From sequence record MK327931.1: DNA of 64,000 nucleotides, one strand, 5' to 3'. The position numbers and the translations under genes were made by a program. Origin of the DNA: Escherichia phage vB_EcoM_G17. This document shows positions 16,745-30,274 of this stretch, one piece after another. Within the stretch, counting starts at the first letter, position 1, and every line of letters starts with the position of its first letter. The notes beneath the pieces are model-generated. The model saw only the letters and a list, made by a program, of their open reading frames with translations. It was not told where the DNA came from and did no database searches.

Positions 16745-17551
16745 TTAACCAATAATCATACCGAGTGGTTCAGCACCATCTTGATAACGTTTCAAACGCT
16801 CTTTAAGCTGTTCTTGAAGCTGTAAACCTTCATTGCGTAAGGTATCACCATCCATAGAAAACGTTCCCTGTGGTCCAGGAAGCGATGCAAATTTAGCACG
16901 GTTACGACCCAACATAATCATTGCTTCGGATAAAGCCCAATCACGCAACCAAGGATAACTTTGCTGCCTTTGGAACAACAATGGTTCAGGAATATTATGA
17001 TAGACGTGTAATAGTACTTCTTCAGTACCACGAATATCACGATCTATAATTAATTTTTTGGTCATTGGGTTAAATTGAAATATAATATCACGACCAAACA
17101 TACGACCTACCAGTTCTTGGAACTGAAAACTAAAATCATATGTAGTTAGATCATATCCACCAGCATTTCGTGCTGAAGTCAATAAGTAAGTGTTGGTGAA
17201 TGCTAGAGAAAACGGGTCTACTGAGTTCCCACTACCAGAACTTAAGTAACCATTACCATAACGATAAATCTTTTTAACAATTTCAACTTCAGTTGGTAGC
17301 ATATATACAGATTGTGAATCATAAAATTTCATATTTAAAAATGCTTCTTCTTTAGAAGCAGAACTCCACGCTCTGTAATTCGATACCGCATTATCAATTG
17401 CAATTTCTAATTGACCATCAGTAATTTCTACCTCAACGGCCCCAGCACCCAACATTTGAGTGATAACATCTTTCAGTTTTTCACGATGGTCAAAGTTAGG
17501 AGCATCAGGGTTTCCACCCATATAATCGTAAGACATAAAAAAGCACCTCAT
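16745..17551 (-). CDS. hypothetical protein (268 aa), possibly virion or tail associated
   Basis: Long ORF two genes upstream of sheath; followed by terminator. Confidence 0.55.
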   Translation of the reverse strand: MRCFFMSYDYMGGNPDAPNFDHREKLKDVITQMLGAGAVEVEITDGQLEIAIDNAVSNYRAWSSASKEEAFLNMKFYDSQSVYMLPTEVEIVKKIYRYGNGYLSSGSGNSVDPFSLAFTNTYLLTSARNAGGYDLTTYDFSFQFQELVGRMFGRDIIFQFNPMTKKLIIDRDIRGTEEVLLHVYHNIPEPLLFQRQQSYPWLRDWALSEAMIMLGRNRAKFASLPGPQGTFSMDGDTLRNEGLQLQEQLKERLKRYQDGAEPLGMIIG

Positions 17552-17586: not shown

Positions 17587-17805
17587 TTATTTTGAATTAT
17601 ACAAGCAGTACAGGTATACCAATGGAGTAAAATGTTCGGAATCTATTATATATATTAACTGAGTAACATATATTCCATATAGATCTCGTGATTTATCTCT
17701 GTACATTAACAATGATTTATTTAAGTAAGGATCAACCCAGTACTTAATATCATTGTACTTCAACGTGTTGTTACGGTAACCTGATAGTTTTGAATTTTTA
17801 TTCAA
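17587..17805 (-). CDS. hypothetical protein (72 aa)
   Basis: Short ORF, 8 nt overlap with upstream gene. Confidence 0.4.
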   Translation of the reverse strand: MNKNSKLSGYRNNTLKYNDIKYWVDPYLNKSLLMYRDKSRDLYGIYVTQLIYIIDSEHFTPLVYLYCLYNSK

Positions 17806-18175
17806 TTTTCTTACAATTACTCAGTAAGTGAATGATATCATCAGCAGTGAATGGTCCCAATACCAGAACTTCTTCACCATTACCGAAAATGCTCAATGGC
17901 ACTGATTGTTGACCAGCTAGATATTCAATTTGTTCCAGTTCGAAAATGTCATCAGCAGCATATACTACCTGCTCCATTTCATTATCTTTAATCCATGACT
18001 GCCAATGTTCTTTAAACTTCTTAGCTTCGTATTCTTGAACATAGTTAGGTGATTCAGGGTTGTATTGATGTAACATAGTCATCCCAGCCATTACTAATTC
18101 TTTAGGGGATGGTGTAGAATCTTTCAGTACTACGATAGCTTGGATAGTTTTTACTTTAACGTCATTAGCAGCCAT
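17798..18175 (-). CDS. hypothetical protein (125 aa)
   Basis: ORF, tight spacing. Confidence 0.5.
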   Translation of the reverse strand: MAANDVKVKTIQAIVVLKDSTPSPKELVMAGMTMLHQYNPESPNYVQEYEAKKFKEHWQSWIKDNEMEQVVYAADDIFELEQIEYLAGQQSVPLSIFGNGEEVLVLGPFTADDIIHLLSNCKKIE

Positions 18176-18515: not shown

Positions 18516-18992
18516 TTATTTTAGAATGTATAAGTGTTTTTCTGCATTGACCAGACGGTGATCAATGATTTCTTTGATAACGTTCCAGTTACCGCCGCCC
18601 AAATCGGCTCCAATTTTCGGGAAATGTACATGAACATCTCGATCAACTTTACAAAAATAATTTAGATGTTTGAACACATCGTCAATTGCATCATAACTGA
18701 CATATTTAGCACCGTCATTACCGTACATTTTTTGGGTAATACAGTTTGCAATAATCAAATTATCGTTAATTGCTGAATATGCAATTTGTCCAATTCTAAG
18801 AAATCCCATTTCCTTTTCATATGCTTTATAATCATCATATGCCATTGGGTAGCGATTCCTTAGTTCCTTTGCGAAACCAGAACCCATCTTACCTTGAGCA
18901 TTACATCCGTGAGCAATAATATGTAATGCATTTTGATCATCGGTAACAGTACTGAATAATTCAAACAGATTACCTCGGTGTTCATGAATCAT
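18516..18992 (-). CDS. macro domain protein (ADP-ribose binding or processing)
   Basis: ALHIIAHGCNAQGKMGSGFAKEL and GADLGGG resemble macro-domain phosphate-binding loops. Confidence 0.7.
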   Translation of the reverse strand: MIHEHRGNLFELFSTVTDDQNALHIIAHGCNAQGKMGSGFAKELRNRYPMAYDDYKAYEKEMGFLRIGQIAYSAINDNLIIANCITQKMYGNDGAKYVSYDAIDDVFKHLNYFCKVDRDVHVHFPKIGADLGGGNWNVIKEIIDHRLVNAEKHLYILK

Positions 18993-19822: not shown

Positions 19823-20224
19823 TTATTTCCTTCTATTTCTTTGAAAAGCTTTAACAGCTTTAATAATACTGTTACACATTCGTTCAGTCAAATACTTTTG
19901 ACATTCTCGTACATCAATGTACATGAACTTATCCAATTCTGGATGACTCTTACCATATCTATTAGTGTAAGTACTTTTACAAACTAATTCATCTGGTATT
20001 GGTTTGTCTTTGGCAGTATAAAAGAAAAGTACTAACCTTTTTCCCTTTCTATAGGATACATCACCAAGAAACAGAAGATCATCTTCATCGATTTCGTATC
20101 CTGTCTCTTCGAAACATTCACGTACAGCAGCTTCTTTGAAAGTTTCATTACCCTCAGCTTTCCCTTTAGGTAAATCCCAATGATTCTGTCCGTGTTGTAT
20201 GTCCGATAAGTATCTGACCATCAC
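19823..20224 (-). CDS. Nudix hydrolase
   Basis: Nudix box GKAEGNETFKEAAVRECFEETG; GTG/ATG start; short N-terminus. Confidence 0.75.
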   Translation of the reverse strand: MMVRYLSDIQHGQNHWDLPKGKAEGNETFKEAAVRECFEETGYEIDEDDLLFLGDVSYRKGKRLVLFFYTAKDKPIPDELVCKSTYTNRYGKSHPELDKFMYIDVRECQKYLTERMCNSIIKAVKAFQRNRRK

Positions 20225-20331: not shown

Positions 20332-21444
20332 TTAGAACATTTGTTTGATTGCTTCGTAACGAAGTTCACAAACAAAATCACGAATTTCTGACGTTTCAAG
20401 TTCACCATCTTTGACCATTTGCTGAATATCAGGCAATTCAACATCAGTATAACGATCATAAACTTTAATAATTAGATCTTCAAGTTCTAAATCAATTTCT
20501 TTTCGCAAAATGAAGTATTCCAAAACTTTATAAAGGAATTCTTCACCTCCGTTATTTTTAATATTCATATCCAATAAAATATTACCCATTTCAATAGGGG
20601 TCTTTTTACGGAATGTTTTGATATCATCACGGAAACGTTTGATATAATTACTAAATTTAACATACTTAACTGGAACTTTAATAGCACCGTTAAGTACTGA
20701 ATCATTATTTACTTCTTCATTTTCAAGAAGAATAGACCACAGAAAATATGGTTTATATACATCAGTACAGTTATCTGAAATATAATCAATAAGGTCTAAA
20801 TTCTTTTTGGTCAAAGATGTATTAAACACCTTTTCGTAATAACCAAATTTACTTAGCGTCTTAAGGAACTTTGAAGGCTTTTCTTCAGAAAATGATTTTT
20901 CGAATTCCACAAAAACACGGTCAGGAACAAGATGATTTAGCTCACCACTATTGACCATTCCAATAGCGAGTTCCTCAGTGCTTTCATGGATAGTAAAGTC
21001 TGAATAACGAGTAGCAAATCGAGCAAGACGTAACACGCGTAATGGATCTTCTTTAAAATGGTCAGAAACATGACGTAGTATCTTGTTCTTGATATCAGCT
21101 TTACCACCGTATGGATCGATGTGAATTTGTAGTACTGGATCATACGCAATTGCATTAATTGTAAGGTCACGGCGATACAAATCTTGTTCTAGTGTTACGC
21201 CTTTTGTATCCACTTCAAAGCCACCATATCCAGTACCAGTTTTACGCTCAGTACGGGCTAATGCGTGTTCATTACCTTCTGGACTTAGATATACTGGGAA
21301 ATCCTTACCTACTTGCTTATAGCCAATACTTTGCAAGTACTTAAGATCAGATTCGGATGCACCAACAATGACATAATCTTTGTCTTTTGCACGGATGCCC
21401 ATTAAACGGTCACGGACGTAACCGCCAACCAAATACTTTTTCAT
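20332..21444 (-). CDS. cca: tRNA nucleotidyltransferase (CCA-adding enzyme/poly(A) polymerase family)
   Basis: N-terminal GGYVRD, DKDYVI and RRDLTINAIAY motifs. Confidence 0.85.
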   Translation of the reverse strand: MKKYLVGGYVRDRLMGIRAKDKDYVIVGASESDLKYLQSIGYKQVGKDFPVYLSPEGNEHALARTERKTGTGYGGFEVDTKGVTLEQDLYRRDLTINAIAYDPVLQIHIDPYGGKADIKNKILRHVSDHFKEDPLRVLRLARFATRYSDFTIHESTEELAIGMVNSGELNHLVPDRVFVEFEKSFSEEKPSKFLKTLSKFGYYEKVFNTSLTKKNLDLIDYISDNCTDVYKPYFLWSILLENEEVNNDSVLNGAIKVPVKYVKFSNYIKRFRDDIKTFRKKTPIEMGNILLDMNIKNNGGEEFLYKVLEYFILRKEIDLELEDLIIKVYDRYTDVELPDIQQMVKDGELETSEIRDFVCELRYEAIKQMF

Positions 21445-23043: not shown

Positions 23044-23376
23044 TTACTCTTCGTTTTCTGTCAAATCATCAAGAACTGGGTGTTCTGGATGGTTTCGGCG
23101 GTGTAATTTAATGCTTTTGTCTTTACTGAATACAGTTTCCATCTTATCAAAAGATTCAACAATTGCTTTATACAAATCAGCATCATCAGCAGTTACTGAT
23201 TTACTACCAGCAGTTAAAGTTACAGCATATTGAGTTTTATGCTCTTTCTTAACATGAACACCAATGTCTAGTACTGAAGAAGTACGGTACTTATCCAGAC
23301 TTTTTGCTTCATTGTAAATAGCATCTTGGATTGCTGGAGTGATATCAACGTTGCCTTGGATATTTAGATTTAGCAT
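23044..23376 (-). CDS. hpf: ribosome hibernation promoting factor homolog (HPF/RaiA/YfiA family)
   Basis: MLNLNIQGNVDITPAIQDAIYNEAKSLDKY aligns to E. coli HPF MQLNITGNNVEITEALREFVTAKFAKLEQY; later DLYKAI..DK as in HPF. Confidence 0.75.
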   Translation of the reverse strand: MLNLNIQGNVDITPAIQDAIYNEAKSLDKYRTSSVLDIGVHVKKEHKTQYAVTLTAGSKSVTADDADLYKAIVESFDKMETVFSKDKSIKLHRRNHPEHPVLDDLTENEE

Positions 23377-23393
23377 ACTTCACCTTCCTTTTT

Positions 23394-24320
23394 TTAGAGT
23401 GAACTTAACAACAAATCTGCTCGGTTTGTAACTTGACGATACCATAAGGAATTCATAATTTCTTTTTTAAATTTCTTAGGGTTATCATTTTTCACACTTT
23501 TCCAAAGTTTATTAAACGTTGCTAATTTATCAACACCCATTGTATAGGACATTTCATAAAGAATACGTTGTTGTTCTTTGGTCAGATTTACTGCTTCTTT
23601 TTTCTGCATCAATAATAAAAAGTCATTATATGTTCTTTTCATATCTTGCATTAAAAGTTTATTGGCTTGAGCTTTGGTAATACCGTTTCTGTACTTAATC
23701 GCATCAGATTCTTTTCTACCCAAATAATGCCCATAACCTATTGTATAATTACCTTTCATGTCCTTGTAGGGATGAAATTTAGAATTGTGGAAAGGAACTC
23801 CGACTTTCCCACCAAGTAAACGGCGTTTGTTCTTGGACTGAAATTCAATTGAACCTTCAGCTTCTTTGATGTGATTGACAATTTCTGGATCATTATAATC
23901 AAACAGTACAGTCACATCTGGTAACAATACGTTCTTCAAATCCTCTTTTGTTGGGATAAAGATACCCTGAGAAGTATGAAGAGTAGCATTTAAATTGATA
24001 TTTTTCAACAAAATAACATACTCTTCAAGTTGTACATTTTTAGGTTTAAACTTTTTAGCAATAGAATAATAACTATCACCAGGTTGAACCGTATAATGCT
24101 TCTCGCCGCGTGGAACATCCTTTGATATTTCTACCTTTGGTAATTCCTGCTTTTGAATTTGCGTAACTTGTGGTTTTAAATTGTGTACCTGACTTTCGTC
24201 CGATGATGATACACGATCATTTTGAGAAAAACCATAAAATCCAATCGCAGCGACAAGTACTGTGCAAACTAGAACACCATAAGTAGTCTTAGTTTTCAGT
24301 GCTTTTTTCGCTTGTTTCAA
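23394..24320 (-). CDS. LysM plus T4-lysozyme-like (GH24-like) domain protein with N-terminal membrane anchor; putative endolysin
   Basis: TM segment VLVCTVLVAAIGFYGF; LysM YTVQPGDSYYSIAKKF; GNYTIGYGHYLG..SLWYRQVTNRA resembles T4 lysozyme; likely TTG start at 24320 after AAGGAGG (ORF extends to 24353). Confidence 0.7.
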   Translation of the reverse strand: MKQAKKALKTKTTYGVLVCTVLVAAIGFYGFSQNDRVSSSDESQVHNLKPQVTQIQKQELPKVEISKDVPRGEKHYTVQPGDSYYSIAKKFKPKNVQLEEYVILLKNINLNATLHTSQGIFIPTKEDLKNVLLPDVTVLFDYNDPEIVNHIKEAEGSIEFQSKNKRRLLGGKVGVPFHNSKFHPYKDMKGNYTIGYGHYLGRKESDAIKYRNGITKAQANKLLMQDMKRTYNDFLLLMQKKEAVNLTKEQQRILYEMSYTMGVDKLATFNKLWKSVKNDNPKKFKKEIMNSLWYRQVTNRADLLLSSL

Positions 24321-24436
24321 AACGCCTCCTTTGTTGATTGTTAAGATGGGCAATCACAAAGATGGCAAAGAGGCCATTTGTAAAAGCCTCATCGGACTTT
24401 CTACAGTACAAAAACGTTCTTTTCAAATGTTTAAGT

Positions 24437-24464
24437 AGTATAGCATATTTTTATTTTATTACAA
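24437..24464 (-). promoter_or_regulatory. candidate promoter TTGTAA-16-TATACT
   Basis: Minus strand TTGTAATAAAATAAAAATATGCTATACT upstream of lysozyme-like gene. Confidence 0.3.
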
Positions 24465-24488
24465 GACATATTTACTGTAAAAACCACA

Positions 24489-24899
24489 TTAATCGTAGTA
24501 GGTTCTACCTACAGTGATGTGATATTTAAAGTACTTGGTTGGTAGTCCTAGTTCATTTCTAATATGTGTGATGAAATCATCTTCAAATTCAATGATAAAG
24601 AATGAACCTGGATTCTTTTTATCTTTTACTATCTCAATACAAGGATTGAACTTTATCTTTACTTTCATTCCATCGTACTTTTTCCAGTACTCTGGATTTG
24701 GTGGCACTTCACCACGAACGATACTGACATGTGCTCCCCATTGTGGGTCTTTAATATCAATATGTAAGTCAGTTCTGATGAAGTACTGGTAGTATCGAAC
24801 CAACTGTAATGGAAGTTGTAGTACTAACCAGAAGTCCTTCTTCTTTTTCATAGTGCCACGTTCTGGATCATACACCAGAGTTCCTTCCATTTCAATCAT
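24489..24899 (-). CDS. 2H phosphoesterase-superfamily-like protein (two H-x-[ST]-x motifs)
   Basis: HVSI and HITV motifs about 70 aa apart; small size (136 aa). Confidence 0.45.
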   Translation of the reverse strand: MIEMEGTLVYDPERGTMKKKKDFWLVLQLPLQLVRYYQYFIRTDLHIDIKDPQWGAHVSIVRGEVPPNPEYWKKYDGMKVKIKFNPCIEIVKDKKNPGSFFIIEFEDDFITHIRNELGLPTKYFKYHITVGRTYYD

Positions 24900-24906
24900 A
24901 TGTTAC

Positions 24907-25110
24907 CTATAAAATTACATATATGTTTTTATTTTCAATACGAACATATGTTTCCAAAACATCTTTCGGAATTTTATTACTTGTTTTGAACCATGTAGTA
25001 TTCTCTACTAAAACAAAAGTTTCACCTTCAGTTTCACCAAATGTACTTAGTGCATAAATGAAGTAATTGGGTGATGCACTACAATATATATCAGCATTAA
25101 TTTCAATCAT
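24907..25110 (-). CDS. hypothetical protein (about 67 aa from ATG at 25110)
   Basis: ORF; first ATG at 25110 (track ORF extends to TTG at 25125). Confidence 0.4.
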   Translation of the reverse strand: MIEINADIYCSASPNYFIYALSTFGETEGETFVLVENTTWFKTSNKIPKDVLETYVRIENKNIYVIL

Positions 25111-25114
25111 ACTT

Positions 25115-25246
25115 TTACACCACAATAAAACTTAATACAACAAGTGTAATAAACACACCCACAATAGCAGTCATTTCTGGGTTTGCATCATATGTATAGC
25201 GTATACATTTTAGAAAATCTTTACCAAATTTCTTTAGTCCATTCAT
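25115..25246 (-). CDS. candidate small membrane protein (43 aa), not in ORF track
   Basis: ATG 12 nt downstream of upstream stop, preceded by AGGAAA; MNGLKKFGKDFLKCIRYTYDANPEMTAIVGVFITLVVLSFIVV with C-terminal hydrophobic helix. Confidence 0.3.
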   Translation of the reverse strand: MNGLKKFGKDFLKCIRYTYDANPEMTAIVGVFITLVVLSFIVV

Positions 25247-25257
25247 ATATTTTCCTT

Positions 25258-25614
25258 TTATTTCTTGTGTAAAGGTTCATCACTTTCATAATAAATTGTA
25301 TCATTATTTCGCTCTATAGTAAAGCTCTTTTGACACAACTCTTCAGCTAAACCCTTTGCATAGTTTAATACATCTCGGTTGAGATATACTTCTTCTTTTG
25401 GAAAGCGTGGGTACTGAATAATACGAGCACACATCCCACTTTCAAGACCGCCAGTGTAGATATATTCACAGGGAATTAATTGTACACAAAAGCCATGCTT
25501 AAACGCAAATTTTCTTGTGTACTCTCTTGCTGTTTGAATATCACCAGCAATATGGATATTCCAGTACTGTGTCTCCACTGTACCTTTATCGATGTATTTC
25601 ATACTCATCTCCAA
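25258..25614 (-). CDS. hypothetical protein (118 aa)
   Basis: ORF, minus strand. Confidence 0.5.
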   Translation of the reverse strand: MEMSMKYIDKGTVETQYWNIHIAGDIQTAREYTRKFAFKHGFCVQLIPCEYIYTGGLESGMCARIIQYPRFPKEEVYLNRDVLNYAKGLAEELCQKSFTIERNNDTIYYESDEPLHKK

Positions 25615-25631
25615 TTATAGCACTAAAAATC

Positions 25632-26021
25632 TCACTTTCCCAACTCTTCTATGATTCTTTTTATTGAATCATGGTTTTCCAGACATAAAGTACTGAAATT
25701 TCTACCTGTTTTTTCATTTAGTTCGCTGATTTCAAGCATAAGATATCCATATGTAATATCTTGAACCCTACTTCGTTTTACCCTTGAGTACAGCTTGATT
25801 GGTACTGATACACGAGTATTCAAAAAGAATTCTGGCAAATCATAACGATATACCAGGTATTCATTCTTGTAACGTTTACGACTGTACGATTCGAAACACT
25901 GCGGATAACGTCTATCAAACATACTACTTCTTAGTTGAAGTATGATTGGATCTAACTTATGTGAGTAATATTTTTTGATTATTTTATCAAATCTTTTTAC
26001 ATGTCGTTTACGCCATCTCAT
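25632..26021 (-). CDS. hypothetical basic protein (129 aa)
   Basis: ORF; basic N-terminus. Confidence 0.5.
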   Translation of the reverse strand: MRWRKRHVKRFDKIIKKYYSHKLDPIILQLRSSMFDRRYPQCFESYSRKRYKNEYLVYRYDLPEFFLNTRVSVPIKLYSRVKRSRVQDITYGYLMLEISELNEKTGRNFSTLCLENHDSIKRIIEELGK

Positions 26022-26515
26022 GTTCTAACTCCTTTCAATAATACAATAGGAAAATACTGTGTATCTGTATCAGAAATACTATTACAGTACTCAATAATTT
26101 CTTGATGGAGTGTGTTTATATAAATGCTAGGATATGGAATTGGTGTTTGTATTAGTCCAGAACTATAAACACAATCAGTTCTTTGACAATCAATATAGTG
26201 TGTTGTTGGTATATCTTTACCACGTTCCTCAACTACAATTGAGTACGAGTCAGCAATAAAAATGAACGCATTGTTAATTGATACATATTGTAGGGAATAC
26301 ACATCATCATGAACTTCAATCAAAGGACCATCAAAATTCATCAATACCGAACGACGATATCCTAACACATCACTCATTGCATCGAACTGTTCTTGTGATG
26401 AAAGATAACAAAAACACGTATCACGACATACGTCAATAAAACGCTTAAATGTTTCTGTTTCTATAAGCATATAATTTTCCTTAAAAAAGACCCCACATAG
26501 TGAGGTCAAATACAT
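26018..26515 (-). CDS. hypothetical protein (165 aa)
   Basis: ORF; 4-nt start/stop overlap with upstream gene. Confidence 0.5.
   Translation of the reverse strand: MYLTSLCGVFFKENYMLIETETFKRFIDVCRDTCFCYLSSQEQFDAMSDVLGYRRSVLMNFDGPLIEVHDDVYSLQYVSINNAFIFIADSYSIVVEERGKDIPTTHYIDCQRTDCVYSSGLIQTPIPYPSIYINTLHQEIIEYCNSISDTDTQYFPIVLLKGVRT
26482..26508 (-). terminator. terminator-like hairpin plus T-run
   Basis: GACCTCACTATGTGGGGTC then TTTTTT on minus strand. Confidence 0.5.
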
Positions 26516-29833: not shown

Positions 29834-30274
29834 TTATTGTAAAACTTTAAGTTTGTAAAGTGTTCCTTCAACAAAACTCATAATATCTTCTAATGTGTTT
29901 ACACTGCCGTAATCACCCGATTCTTCAAGCATATCATGAATTGCTCTGCATTGCTCAACATATTCTTCAAGAATTGGTACACAATCTTCAATTGGTGTAA
30001 AACGATAACTATTACCAGTCCCAACTTGCAAAGCACCACGATTATTCATGATACCTTCAACAAATGCGTCTACATATTCTGGTAATTCTTTATATAGTTC
30101 ATCTAATTGTAAATGCTTTGTATAAAAATGACATTGTAAGTGCCAGTTATGTGCAGCAGAACTTAAAAACAAACTATTTTCAATAAAAGTTAATAGTACT
30201 TCATCATATGAATTATCTTCTTCAGTACTTCCGATAAAGTCCATTACGTGTCGTAAATCATTAATATCTTCCAT
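29834..30274 (-). CDS. hypothetical protein (146 aa)
   Basis: ORF. Confidence 0.5.
   Translation of the reverse strand: MEDINDLRHVMDFIGSTEEDNSYDEVLLTFIENSLFLSSAAHNWHLQCHFYTKHLQLDELYKELPEYVDAFVEGIMNNRGALQVGTGNSYRFTPIEDCVPILEEYVEQCRAIHDMLEESGDYGSVNTLEDIMSFVEGTLYKLKVLQ

Follow-up and report, generated by a model that had tools for sequence, protein, structure and literature searches.

The gp427 locus and its predicted product

The DNA analyzed here (the window) is a stretch of 64,000 nucleotides (nt) deposited for Escherichia phage vB_EcoM_G17 (MK327931.1). The window was a 100% match to Escherichia phage Sharanji (OR545507.1; genus Asteriusvirus, 350,079 bp), with window position 1 at record position 239,631, and gene names below are those of Sharanji. 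The source belongs to the 121Q/PBECO4 type of jumbo phages and is not T4-like. The gene under study, Sharanji_gp427, is annotated as 'hypothetical protein' in the record and forms part of a long array of minus-strand genes. An earlier note, made from the letters of the window alone, had described an open reading frame of 136 amino acids (aa) at this position and a pair of motifs fitting the 2H phosphoesterase fold; the reading frame was recovered exactly as described, with its ATG start, and both motifs (HVSI and HITV, 70 residues apart) were read directly in the gp427 sequence. The features of the gene are as follows.

24489..24899, minus strand: coding sequence of a probable 2H phosphoesterase (Sharanji_gp427), 136 aa, ATG start, stop TAA at 24489-24491
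24905..24909, minus strand: TAG stop of the upstream gene gp428 and overlapping AGGT Shine-Dalgarno-like element, 5 nt before the gp427 ATG
24720..24731, minus strand: predicted catalytic motif 1, H57-V-S59-I (residues 57-60), followed by R62-G63, in predicted strand 56-62
24510..24521, minus strand: predicted catalytic motif 2, H127-I-T129-V (residues 127-130), followed by G131-R132, in the last predicted strand (126-132), with 9 residues to the C-terminus

The overlap of the gp428 stop with the AGGT element implies that gp427 would be co-transcribed with the upstream minus-strand array. Promoter- and terminator-like sites within 23300-26100 occurred at chance level and were no commoner than in shuffled sequence. 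A start at M1 was supported by conserved residues preceding M4 (consensus 'IExEG', 20 homologs) and by the AGGT element upstream. Neither a paralog of gp427 nor a protein resembling T4 Acb1 or ThpR was detectable in the Sharanji genome, and the gene is not discussed in the Sharanji or fEgEco12 papers.

By our own rough estimate, two H-x-[ST] motifs occur by chance in 136 aa with a probability of ~5%, which is not significant alone; the motifs were taken as real because they are conserved across homologs, and not because of their mere presence. Among 20 homologs, H57, H127 and T129 were invariant and S59 was kept in at least 90%. In a broader set of 64 representatives (25-54% identity), H57 and H127 were the sole invariant columns, with S or T at position 59 and T or S at position 129 in all 64. 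The first motif was followed by R62 (47/64) and G63 (59/64), and the second by G131 (59/64) and R or K at position 132 (51/64), so that most of the 64 sequences carry Arg or Lys at +5 from each motif His.

The structure of gp427 was predicted with AlphaFold2 from a 20-sequence alignment. The model was confident (mean predicted local distance difference test score 90.5, predicted template modeling score 0.83) and comprised seven strands and two helices in the bilobed alpha+beta arrangement of the 2H fold, with each motif His inside a strand; the earlier assignment of the motif pair to a 2H phosphoesterase is borne out by this fold together with the conservation across homologs. Superposition on 2H enzymes implies that H57 and H127 would be juxtaposed across an active-site cleft. 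The earlier note had proposed a fold search against anti-CBASS-type (CBASS being an antiphage signaling system based on cyclic oligonucleotides) and LigT-type enzymes, and the model matched both types. The scores in this comparison were 7.2 for Acb1 of phage FBB1, 6.8 for mouse hepatitis virus (MHV) ns2, 6.4 and 6.1 for Usb1, 6.0 for the Penguinpox cGAMP phosphodiesterase, 6.0 for archaeal LigT (PH0099), 5.8 for the Deinococcus cyclic phosphodiesterase (CPDase), 5.7 for YjcG, 5.6 for ThpR, 5.6 for CNPase, 5.1 for AKAP18, 4.9 for the plant Appr>p (ADP-ribose 1'',2''-cyclic phosphate) CPDase, 4.5 for ASCC1 and 4.0 for rotavirus VP3. Foldseek searches of PDB and BFVD returned weak 2H matches only (E >= 0.008), except for one truncated ortholog, and sequence searches of PDB with gp427 alone and with a 64-sequence profile returned nothing relevant and no solved relative. 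Taken on its conserved motifs and its model, gp427 is a genuine and probably active 2H phosphoesterase.

Family membership and comparison with Acb1 and ThpR

The only Pfam match of gp427 was PF22547 (2H-SAK), at E 1.4e-5 and 25.8 bits against a gathering threshold of 27, aligned over residues 89-136. The same family was matched by 52 of 64 relatives (E <= 0.01; best E 1e-8). As the best E over all 64 was never below 1e-8, the clade is, by profile score, a peripheral one at the edge of PF22547. A precomputed PF22547 tag is carried by most database homologs, and the ortholog of Yersinia phage fHe-Yen9-04 is named accordingly in UniRef. No NCBIfam model matched gp427, and in PHROGs it belongs to phrog_12204 (function unknown). 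The literature search found no characterized member of PF22547, which was defined computationally, no paper mentioning 2H-SAK or PF22547, and no paper on a characterized member of the gp427 family. The name 'Swiss Army Knife' of PF22547 implies association with RNA-end-processing modules (phosphatase, kinase, ligase). The gp427 family differs in consisting of stand-alone proteins of ~140 aa and not of domains within multidomain repair proteins; fusions to RNA-end modules were absent among the top 150 representatives, save for one 2H-YqeY fusion.

At E <= 1e-3, an exhaustive profile search recovered 1,098 clusters, most of them proteins of 130-170 aa that stand alone. Homologs were present in 76 GenBank phage records, nearly all of 320-600 kb, from phages of Escherichia, Klebsiella, Salmonella, Erwinia, Yersinia, Serratia, Vibrio, Ralstonia, Agrobacterium and Bacillus, and at 35 loci in IMG/VR, where the full-length contigs spanned 296-608 kb. 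When 185,579 species genomes were scanned, four contigs from metagenome-assembled genomes (MAGs) matched the family and no clear cellular homolog was found at that sensitivity. With few exceptions, the family occurs in phages of at least 300 kb.

Acb1 of T4 and of Erwinia phage FBB1 is an anti-CBASS nuclease (PDB 7T26/7T27; Hobbs et al. 2022, PMC9117128). Its hallmarks are a C-terminal lid (residues 145-152) with W147, a glutamate (E141) contacting the ligand adenine, and the nucleobase-stacking aromatics Y12, W74 and F107 (Hobbs et al., PMC9117128). The Acb1 family of Pfam, PF23474, was found on all 68 T4 Acb1 homologs but one 99-aa fragment, on T4-like contigs of 160-180 kb. It gave no match for gp427 at E <= 10 (PF23474 was not directly confirmed to be in the Pfam copy used, which holds higher-numbered models) and none among the 64 relatives at E <= 0.01. 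In reciprocal searches with hidden Markov models (HMMs), cross scores between the gp427 and Acb1 families were 5-13 bits, with each family fully recovering its own members. In gp427, H127 is followed by 9 residues (family median 9, range 6-28), whereas 39 residues follow the second motif His in T4 Acb1, and for this reason the Acb1 lid and E141 are without counterpart in gp427. A conserved N-terminal loop of lower confidence (Y10-D-P12-x-R14) may serve as a substitute lid. Acb1 G10-x-Y12 aligned with the conserved G98-x-F100 and Acb1 Y110 with W54, and W74 and F107 had no clear counterparts, all at an alignment probability of only 43-59%. The gp427 family is basic (median isoelectric point (pI) 9.3) and T4 Acb1 acidic (pI 5.1), and the former is found in phages of at least 300 kb, the latter in T4-like phages of ~170 kb. 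Membership of gp427 in the Acb1 family is not supported, given the lack of a PF23474 match, the near-noise reciprocal HMM scores, the missing C-terminal lid and the basic pI.

One member of the gp427 family has nevertheless been published under that name: gp116 of Bacillus phage G was labeled an anti-CBASS Acb1 in 2025 on HHpred evidence (PMC12484599). This protein (locus L003, 6001-6405) belongs to phrog_12204 and lies outside PF23474, and its published label rests on remote fold similarity only.

The LigT/ThpR families (PF02834, PF13563) did not match gp427, and one of the 64 relatives matched LigT_PEase at E 0.0012. Between the gp427 family and ThpR, hhalign gave a probability of <2%, and HMM scores reached 2-3 bits; as the profile for ThpR was a narrow one (close relatives only, at least 73% identity), comparison of these values with those from the Acb1 profile is not strictly fair. 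ThpR/LigT, a bacterial RNA 2',3'-cyclic phosphodiesterase (PDB 4QAK), differs from gp427 in its length (176 aa), in the 51 residues that follow its second His and in being cellular and not phage-encoded. Common to both is an Arg five residues after a motif His: the first-motif segment of gp427 (PxWGaH57ISViR62GE) pairs with the second motif of ThpR (PFHPH125ITLLR130D), such that H57...R62 aligns with H125...R130. ThpR R130 reportedly has a catalytic role.

Relative to Acb1, the order of the two half-domains appears swapped in the gp427 family. In native order, the family profile aligned to the Acb1 profile over 35 columns only (probability 43%), with the last strand-helix-H127xT unit of gp427 paired with the first strand-helix-H44xT unit of Acb1. 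When residues 93-136 were moved before residues 1-92, the alignment extended over 96 columns with both histidines in register (probability 59%). This longer alignment, together with the abrupt C-terminus and two extra N-terminal strands, suggests that the family may be a circular permutation of the usual 2H order; because the 2H fold is an internal duplication, a lobe swap and a permutation look alike in sequence. If true, the apparent permutation would be worth bearing in mind when 2H enzymes are annotated from structure.

Gene neighborhood and tRNA repair genes

The 2H gene lies in a fixed gene island common to the Rak2-like clade (53-61% identity) and to lineages at ~50% identity. In its upstream half the order is RNA ligase (PHA02142 OB + PF09414), HAD hydrolase and PRTase_3 (as a bracketed pair), DUF2828/DUF7788 and 2H; the island then continues with lysozyme, HPF, CCA-adding enzyme, Nudix, glutaredoxin, YqeY, Macro, PTH2 and neck protein. 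Sharanji retains the 2H, lysozyme, HPF, CCA, Nudix, glutaredoxin, Macro, PTH2-like and neck protein genes, and no copy of the island ligase, HAD, PRTase, DUF2828 or YqeY genes was detectable anywhere in its genome. The retained genes were located in the window as follows.

23394-24353, minus strand: LysM-lysozyme, directly downstream of the 2H gene, with HPF next
23044..23376, minus strand: ribosome hibernation factor S30AE/HPF (PF02482, E 3.3e-10), syntenic in the Rak2-like clade
20332..21444, minus strand: CCA-adding enzyme without HD domain (PolyA_pol + PolyA_pol_RNAbd only), putative partner of gp427
19823..20224, minus strand: Nudix hydrolase (PF00293, E 1.1e-12), syntenic
18516..18992, minus strand: Macro-domain protein (Macro E 0.009; NCBIfam DarG macrodomain E 4e-8, far below the model cutoff)
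17798..18175, minus strand: PTH2-like protein, 125 aa, annotated as 'hypothetical protein' (phmmer E 1.3e-15 to the PTH2-tagged gene of locus L056, at the same island position)
16745-17551: neck protein gene, beside the PTH2-like gene

The PTH2-like gene, another translation-rescue gene of the island, had no direct Pfam match at E <= 0.01. The position of HPF downstream of the 2H gene is kept across Rak2-like jumbo phages. Directly upstream of the 2H gene in these phages, beside the PHA02142 OB-fold ligase, lies a DUF2828 + DUF7788 protein of ~510-530 aa (L002 4987-6513, Serratia phage BF_0180; L056 6222-7814; L058 6214-7803). DUF2828 we take to be TROVE/Ro-like, i.e., an RNA quality control domain, for which the literature search gave no confirmation.

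More distant lineages were compared in the same way. One lineage (L037, L040 and L042) has a His_Phos_1 phosphatase gene that touches or overlaps the 2H gene, then a gene with an RNA-ligase domain, with EF-Ts on the upstream side. The string at L040 9989-13160 (also in L037 and L042) reads 2H, His_Phos_1, HNH homing endonuclease, unknown, RNA-ligase adenylyltransferase and AAA ATPase. EF-Ts lies 1.1 kb upstream of it and tRNA genes are no more than 600 bp away, and the string resembles a heal-and-seal cassette into which a homing endonuclease has been inserted. The distance between the 2H gene and that for YqeY, a proven cis-acting tRNA affinity enhancer, is 0.4 kb in Atu_ph07 and 1.9 kb in L046, and the single representative mentioned above has the two fused. 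In 5 of ~19 lineages a CCA gene was no more than 10 kb from the 2H gene; a Macro gene lay 3-5 kb away in Bacillus phage G and Atu_ph07, and a tRNA gene within 1 kb in 5 of 21 non-redundant loci. At one of the MAG loci (L052, 8001-8372; contig CAYXQY010000017.1), the family member sits within an array of 19 tRNA genes. The end of one tRNA lies 39 bp upstream of it and the start of another coincides with its stop codon, so that it is presumably transcribed together with them. ARAGORN assigned 4-base anticodons to two of the tRNAs called at this locus.

Over residues 1-207 the CCA enzyme of Sharanji shares 51% identity with E. coli Cca, with complete divergence beyond; E. coli Cca has its HD domain at residues 229-328, and none was found in the Sharanji enzyme at E <= 1. 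The HD domain is also absent from the 2H-linked CCA enzymes of Serratia phage BF, Vibrio phage 2.275.O and L034. As judged by domain content, the label 'multifunctional CCA protein', which implies phosphodiesterase and phosphatase activity, is unjustified for all four enzymes. The HD domain of Cca is thought to clear damaged tRNA 3' ends. Yakunin et al. 2004 reportedly found 2',3'-cyclic phosphodiesterase, 2'-nucleotidase and phosphatase activities in the HD domain of the E. coli enzyme. From the loss of this domain and the proximity of the two genes, we infer that a separate 2H enzyme could supply the 2',3'-cyclic phosphodiesterase lost with it. The 2H enzyme would then be a functional analogue of the HD domain, clearing blocked tRNA 3' ends before CCA rebuilding, with an unrelated fold and mechanism (the HD domain is metal-dependent, the 2H enzyme metal-independent).

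Outside the window, the Sharanji record holds two further genes of RNA repair.

OR545507.1 314853-315785 (L049 11854-12786): gp516, T4-type PNKP, deposited as 'zeta toxin' (AAA_33 kinase + HAD_PNKP, E 8.5e-44)
OR545507.1 316882-318024 (L049 13883-15025): gp521, T4 Rnl1-type RNA ligase with the Rnl1 C-terminal domain, 1 kb from gp516

By their domains, gp516 and gp521 are a complete anticodon-nuclease repair pair. As Sharanji encodes both Pnkp and Rnl1, the phage invests in tRNA repair.

Proposed function and alternatives

We assign a probability of about 0.5 to gp427 being an RNA/tRNA 2',3'-cyclic phosphodiesterase within a translation-rescue island. This assignment is drawn from gene context, namely the island of ligase, HPF, HD-less CCA, Nudix, YqeY, Macro and PTH2 genes, the phosphatase-ligase string, the 2H-YqeY fusion and the tRNA arrays, and it is from this context that we infer substrate, product and pathway partners. 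The protein would be a small, basic, stand-alone and metal-independent 2H enzyme in which the strands carrying H57/S59 and H127/T129 face each other across the cleft, with R62 and R132 assisting in phosphate binding as R130 does in E. coli ThpR. Its substrate would be a 2',3'-cyclic phosphate left on tRNA or another translation RNA by metal-independent host defense nucleases. Opening of the cyclic phosphate by gp427 would be the first healing step, after which the PNKP phosphatase (gp516) and Rnl1 ligase (gp521) would reseal an anticodon-loop break; alternatively, the phage CCA-adding enzyme, encoded 3 kb away, would rebuild a damaged 3' end. The purpose proposed is that of T4 Pnkp and Rnl1, which heal the 2',3'-cyclic phosphate/5'-OH breaks made by anticodon nucleases, and the step proposed is the one carried out by the 2H cyclic phosphodiesterase domain of the fungal and plant tRNA ligase Trl1.

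Several points limit the strength of this reading. The Pnkp and Rnl1 genes of Sharanji are ~52 kb from gp427, which is fused to neither of them, and T4 achieves 3' healing with the HAD phosphatase of its Pnkp and no 2H enzyme. With a PNKP/Rnl1 pair of its own, the phage would not strictly need a 2H enzyme for anticodon-loop repair, which tempers confidence. Linkage to RNA ligase was found in two lineages and to His_Phos_1 in one, and the strings represent two lineages, not six. The acb1 gene of T4 also adjoins the T4 tRNA cluster, so that proximity to tRNA genes was down-weighted, and the chance estimates for gene neighborhoods are rough. A more specific version would have a permuted, jumbo-phage-specific 2H branch supply in trans the activity lost from the HD-less CCA enzyme and form, with YqeY, HPF and PTH2, a tRNA 3'-end and translation rescue module that counters acceptor-end nucleases and is distinct from the Pnkp/Rnl1 pathway; we consider this quite unlikely in that full form.

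Acb1 is the nearest characterized relative of gp427 by structure and profile, and gp427 might accordingly be a nuclease of cyclic oligonucleotide signals (those of CBASS, type III CRISPR or related 2'-5'/3'-5' linked species) that blocks abortive infection, standing in functionally for T4 Acb1 where a jumbo phage has no canonical Acb1. We hold such a role to be possible, as the main rival reading, at odds of somewhat better than one in five. The presence of Macro and Nudix genes in the island raises instead a phosphodiesterase of Appr>p or a related ADP-ribose derivative, disposing of NAD-derived by-products or signals: the 2H enzyme would open the cyclic phosphate, Macro would remove the 1''-phosphate and Nudix would split ADP-ribose. 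The Macro gene is never adjacent to the 2H gene, however, and the Sharanji Macro protein (18516-18992) is most like the DarG DNA-ADP-ribosyl glycohydrolase macrodomain, so that it could counter DarT-type DNA ADP-ribosylation defense rather than act as an Appr-1''-p phosphatase. No KptA/Tpt1 source of Appr>p stood among the Sharanji annotations (no search was aimed at one), and the published sirtuin-2H-Nudix-cREC-PIN locus of Serratia phage BF lies ~70 genes from the gp427 ortholog; it is a different locus, and gp427 was rejected as a part of it. We regard the ADP-ribose role as improbable. Least credible to us, and very improbable, is a Usb1/ns2-like nuclease that shortens or cuts 3' ends or 2'-5' linkages of host RNA, for instance in host shut-off or in remodeling of tRNA or rRNA ends. 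gp427 has no sequence-level affinity to the Usb1 or ns2 family, and linkage to RNA ligase, phosphatase, CCA and PTH2 genes fits restoration better than destruction.

The 2H superfamily, the occurrence of 2H enzymes in jumbo phages and the Pfam tags on orthologs are known already, and an RNA-end healing role is in print in the jumbo-phage survey of the Aravind group, whose 2H example (QDH83605.1) is not the phAPEC6 ortholog. Two incompatible functions have thus been published, anti-CBASS Acb1 for phage G gp116 and RNA-end healing in the survey, and calling every small 2H protein Acb1 would overstate the anti-CBASS capacity of phage genomes. The present analysis adds the conflict between these annotations, a topology that may be permuted, and the pairing with a CCA enzyme that lacks HD, which offers a simple and testable division of labor. 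Jumbo phages carry hundreds of unannotated genes, and the gp427 family is almost a signature of phages of at least 300 kb. If the RNA-end role is true, the family is the marker of an island for translation rescue (CCA enzyme, HPF, PTH2, YqeY, ligase) with which large phages would keep their tRNAs functional while the host attacks.

Upstream of the 2H gene in the window, a single one of ten open reading frames was recognizable by Pfam.

29834-30274, minus strand: DUF5856 protein, 146 aa (E 1.9e-28), with a weak ferritin-like signal
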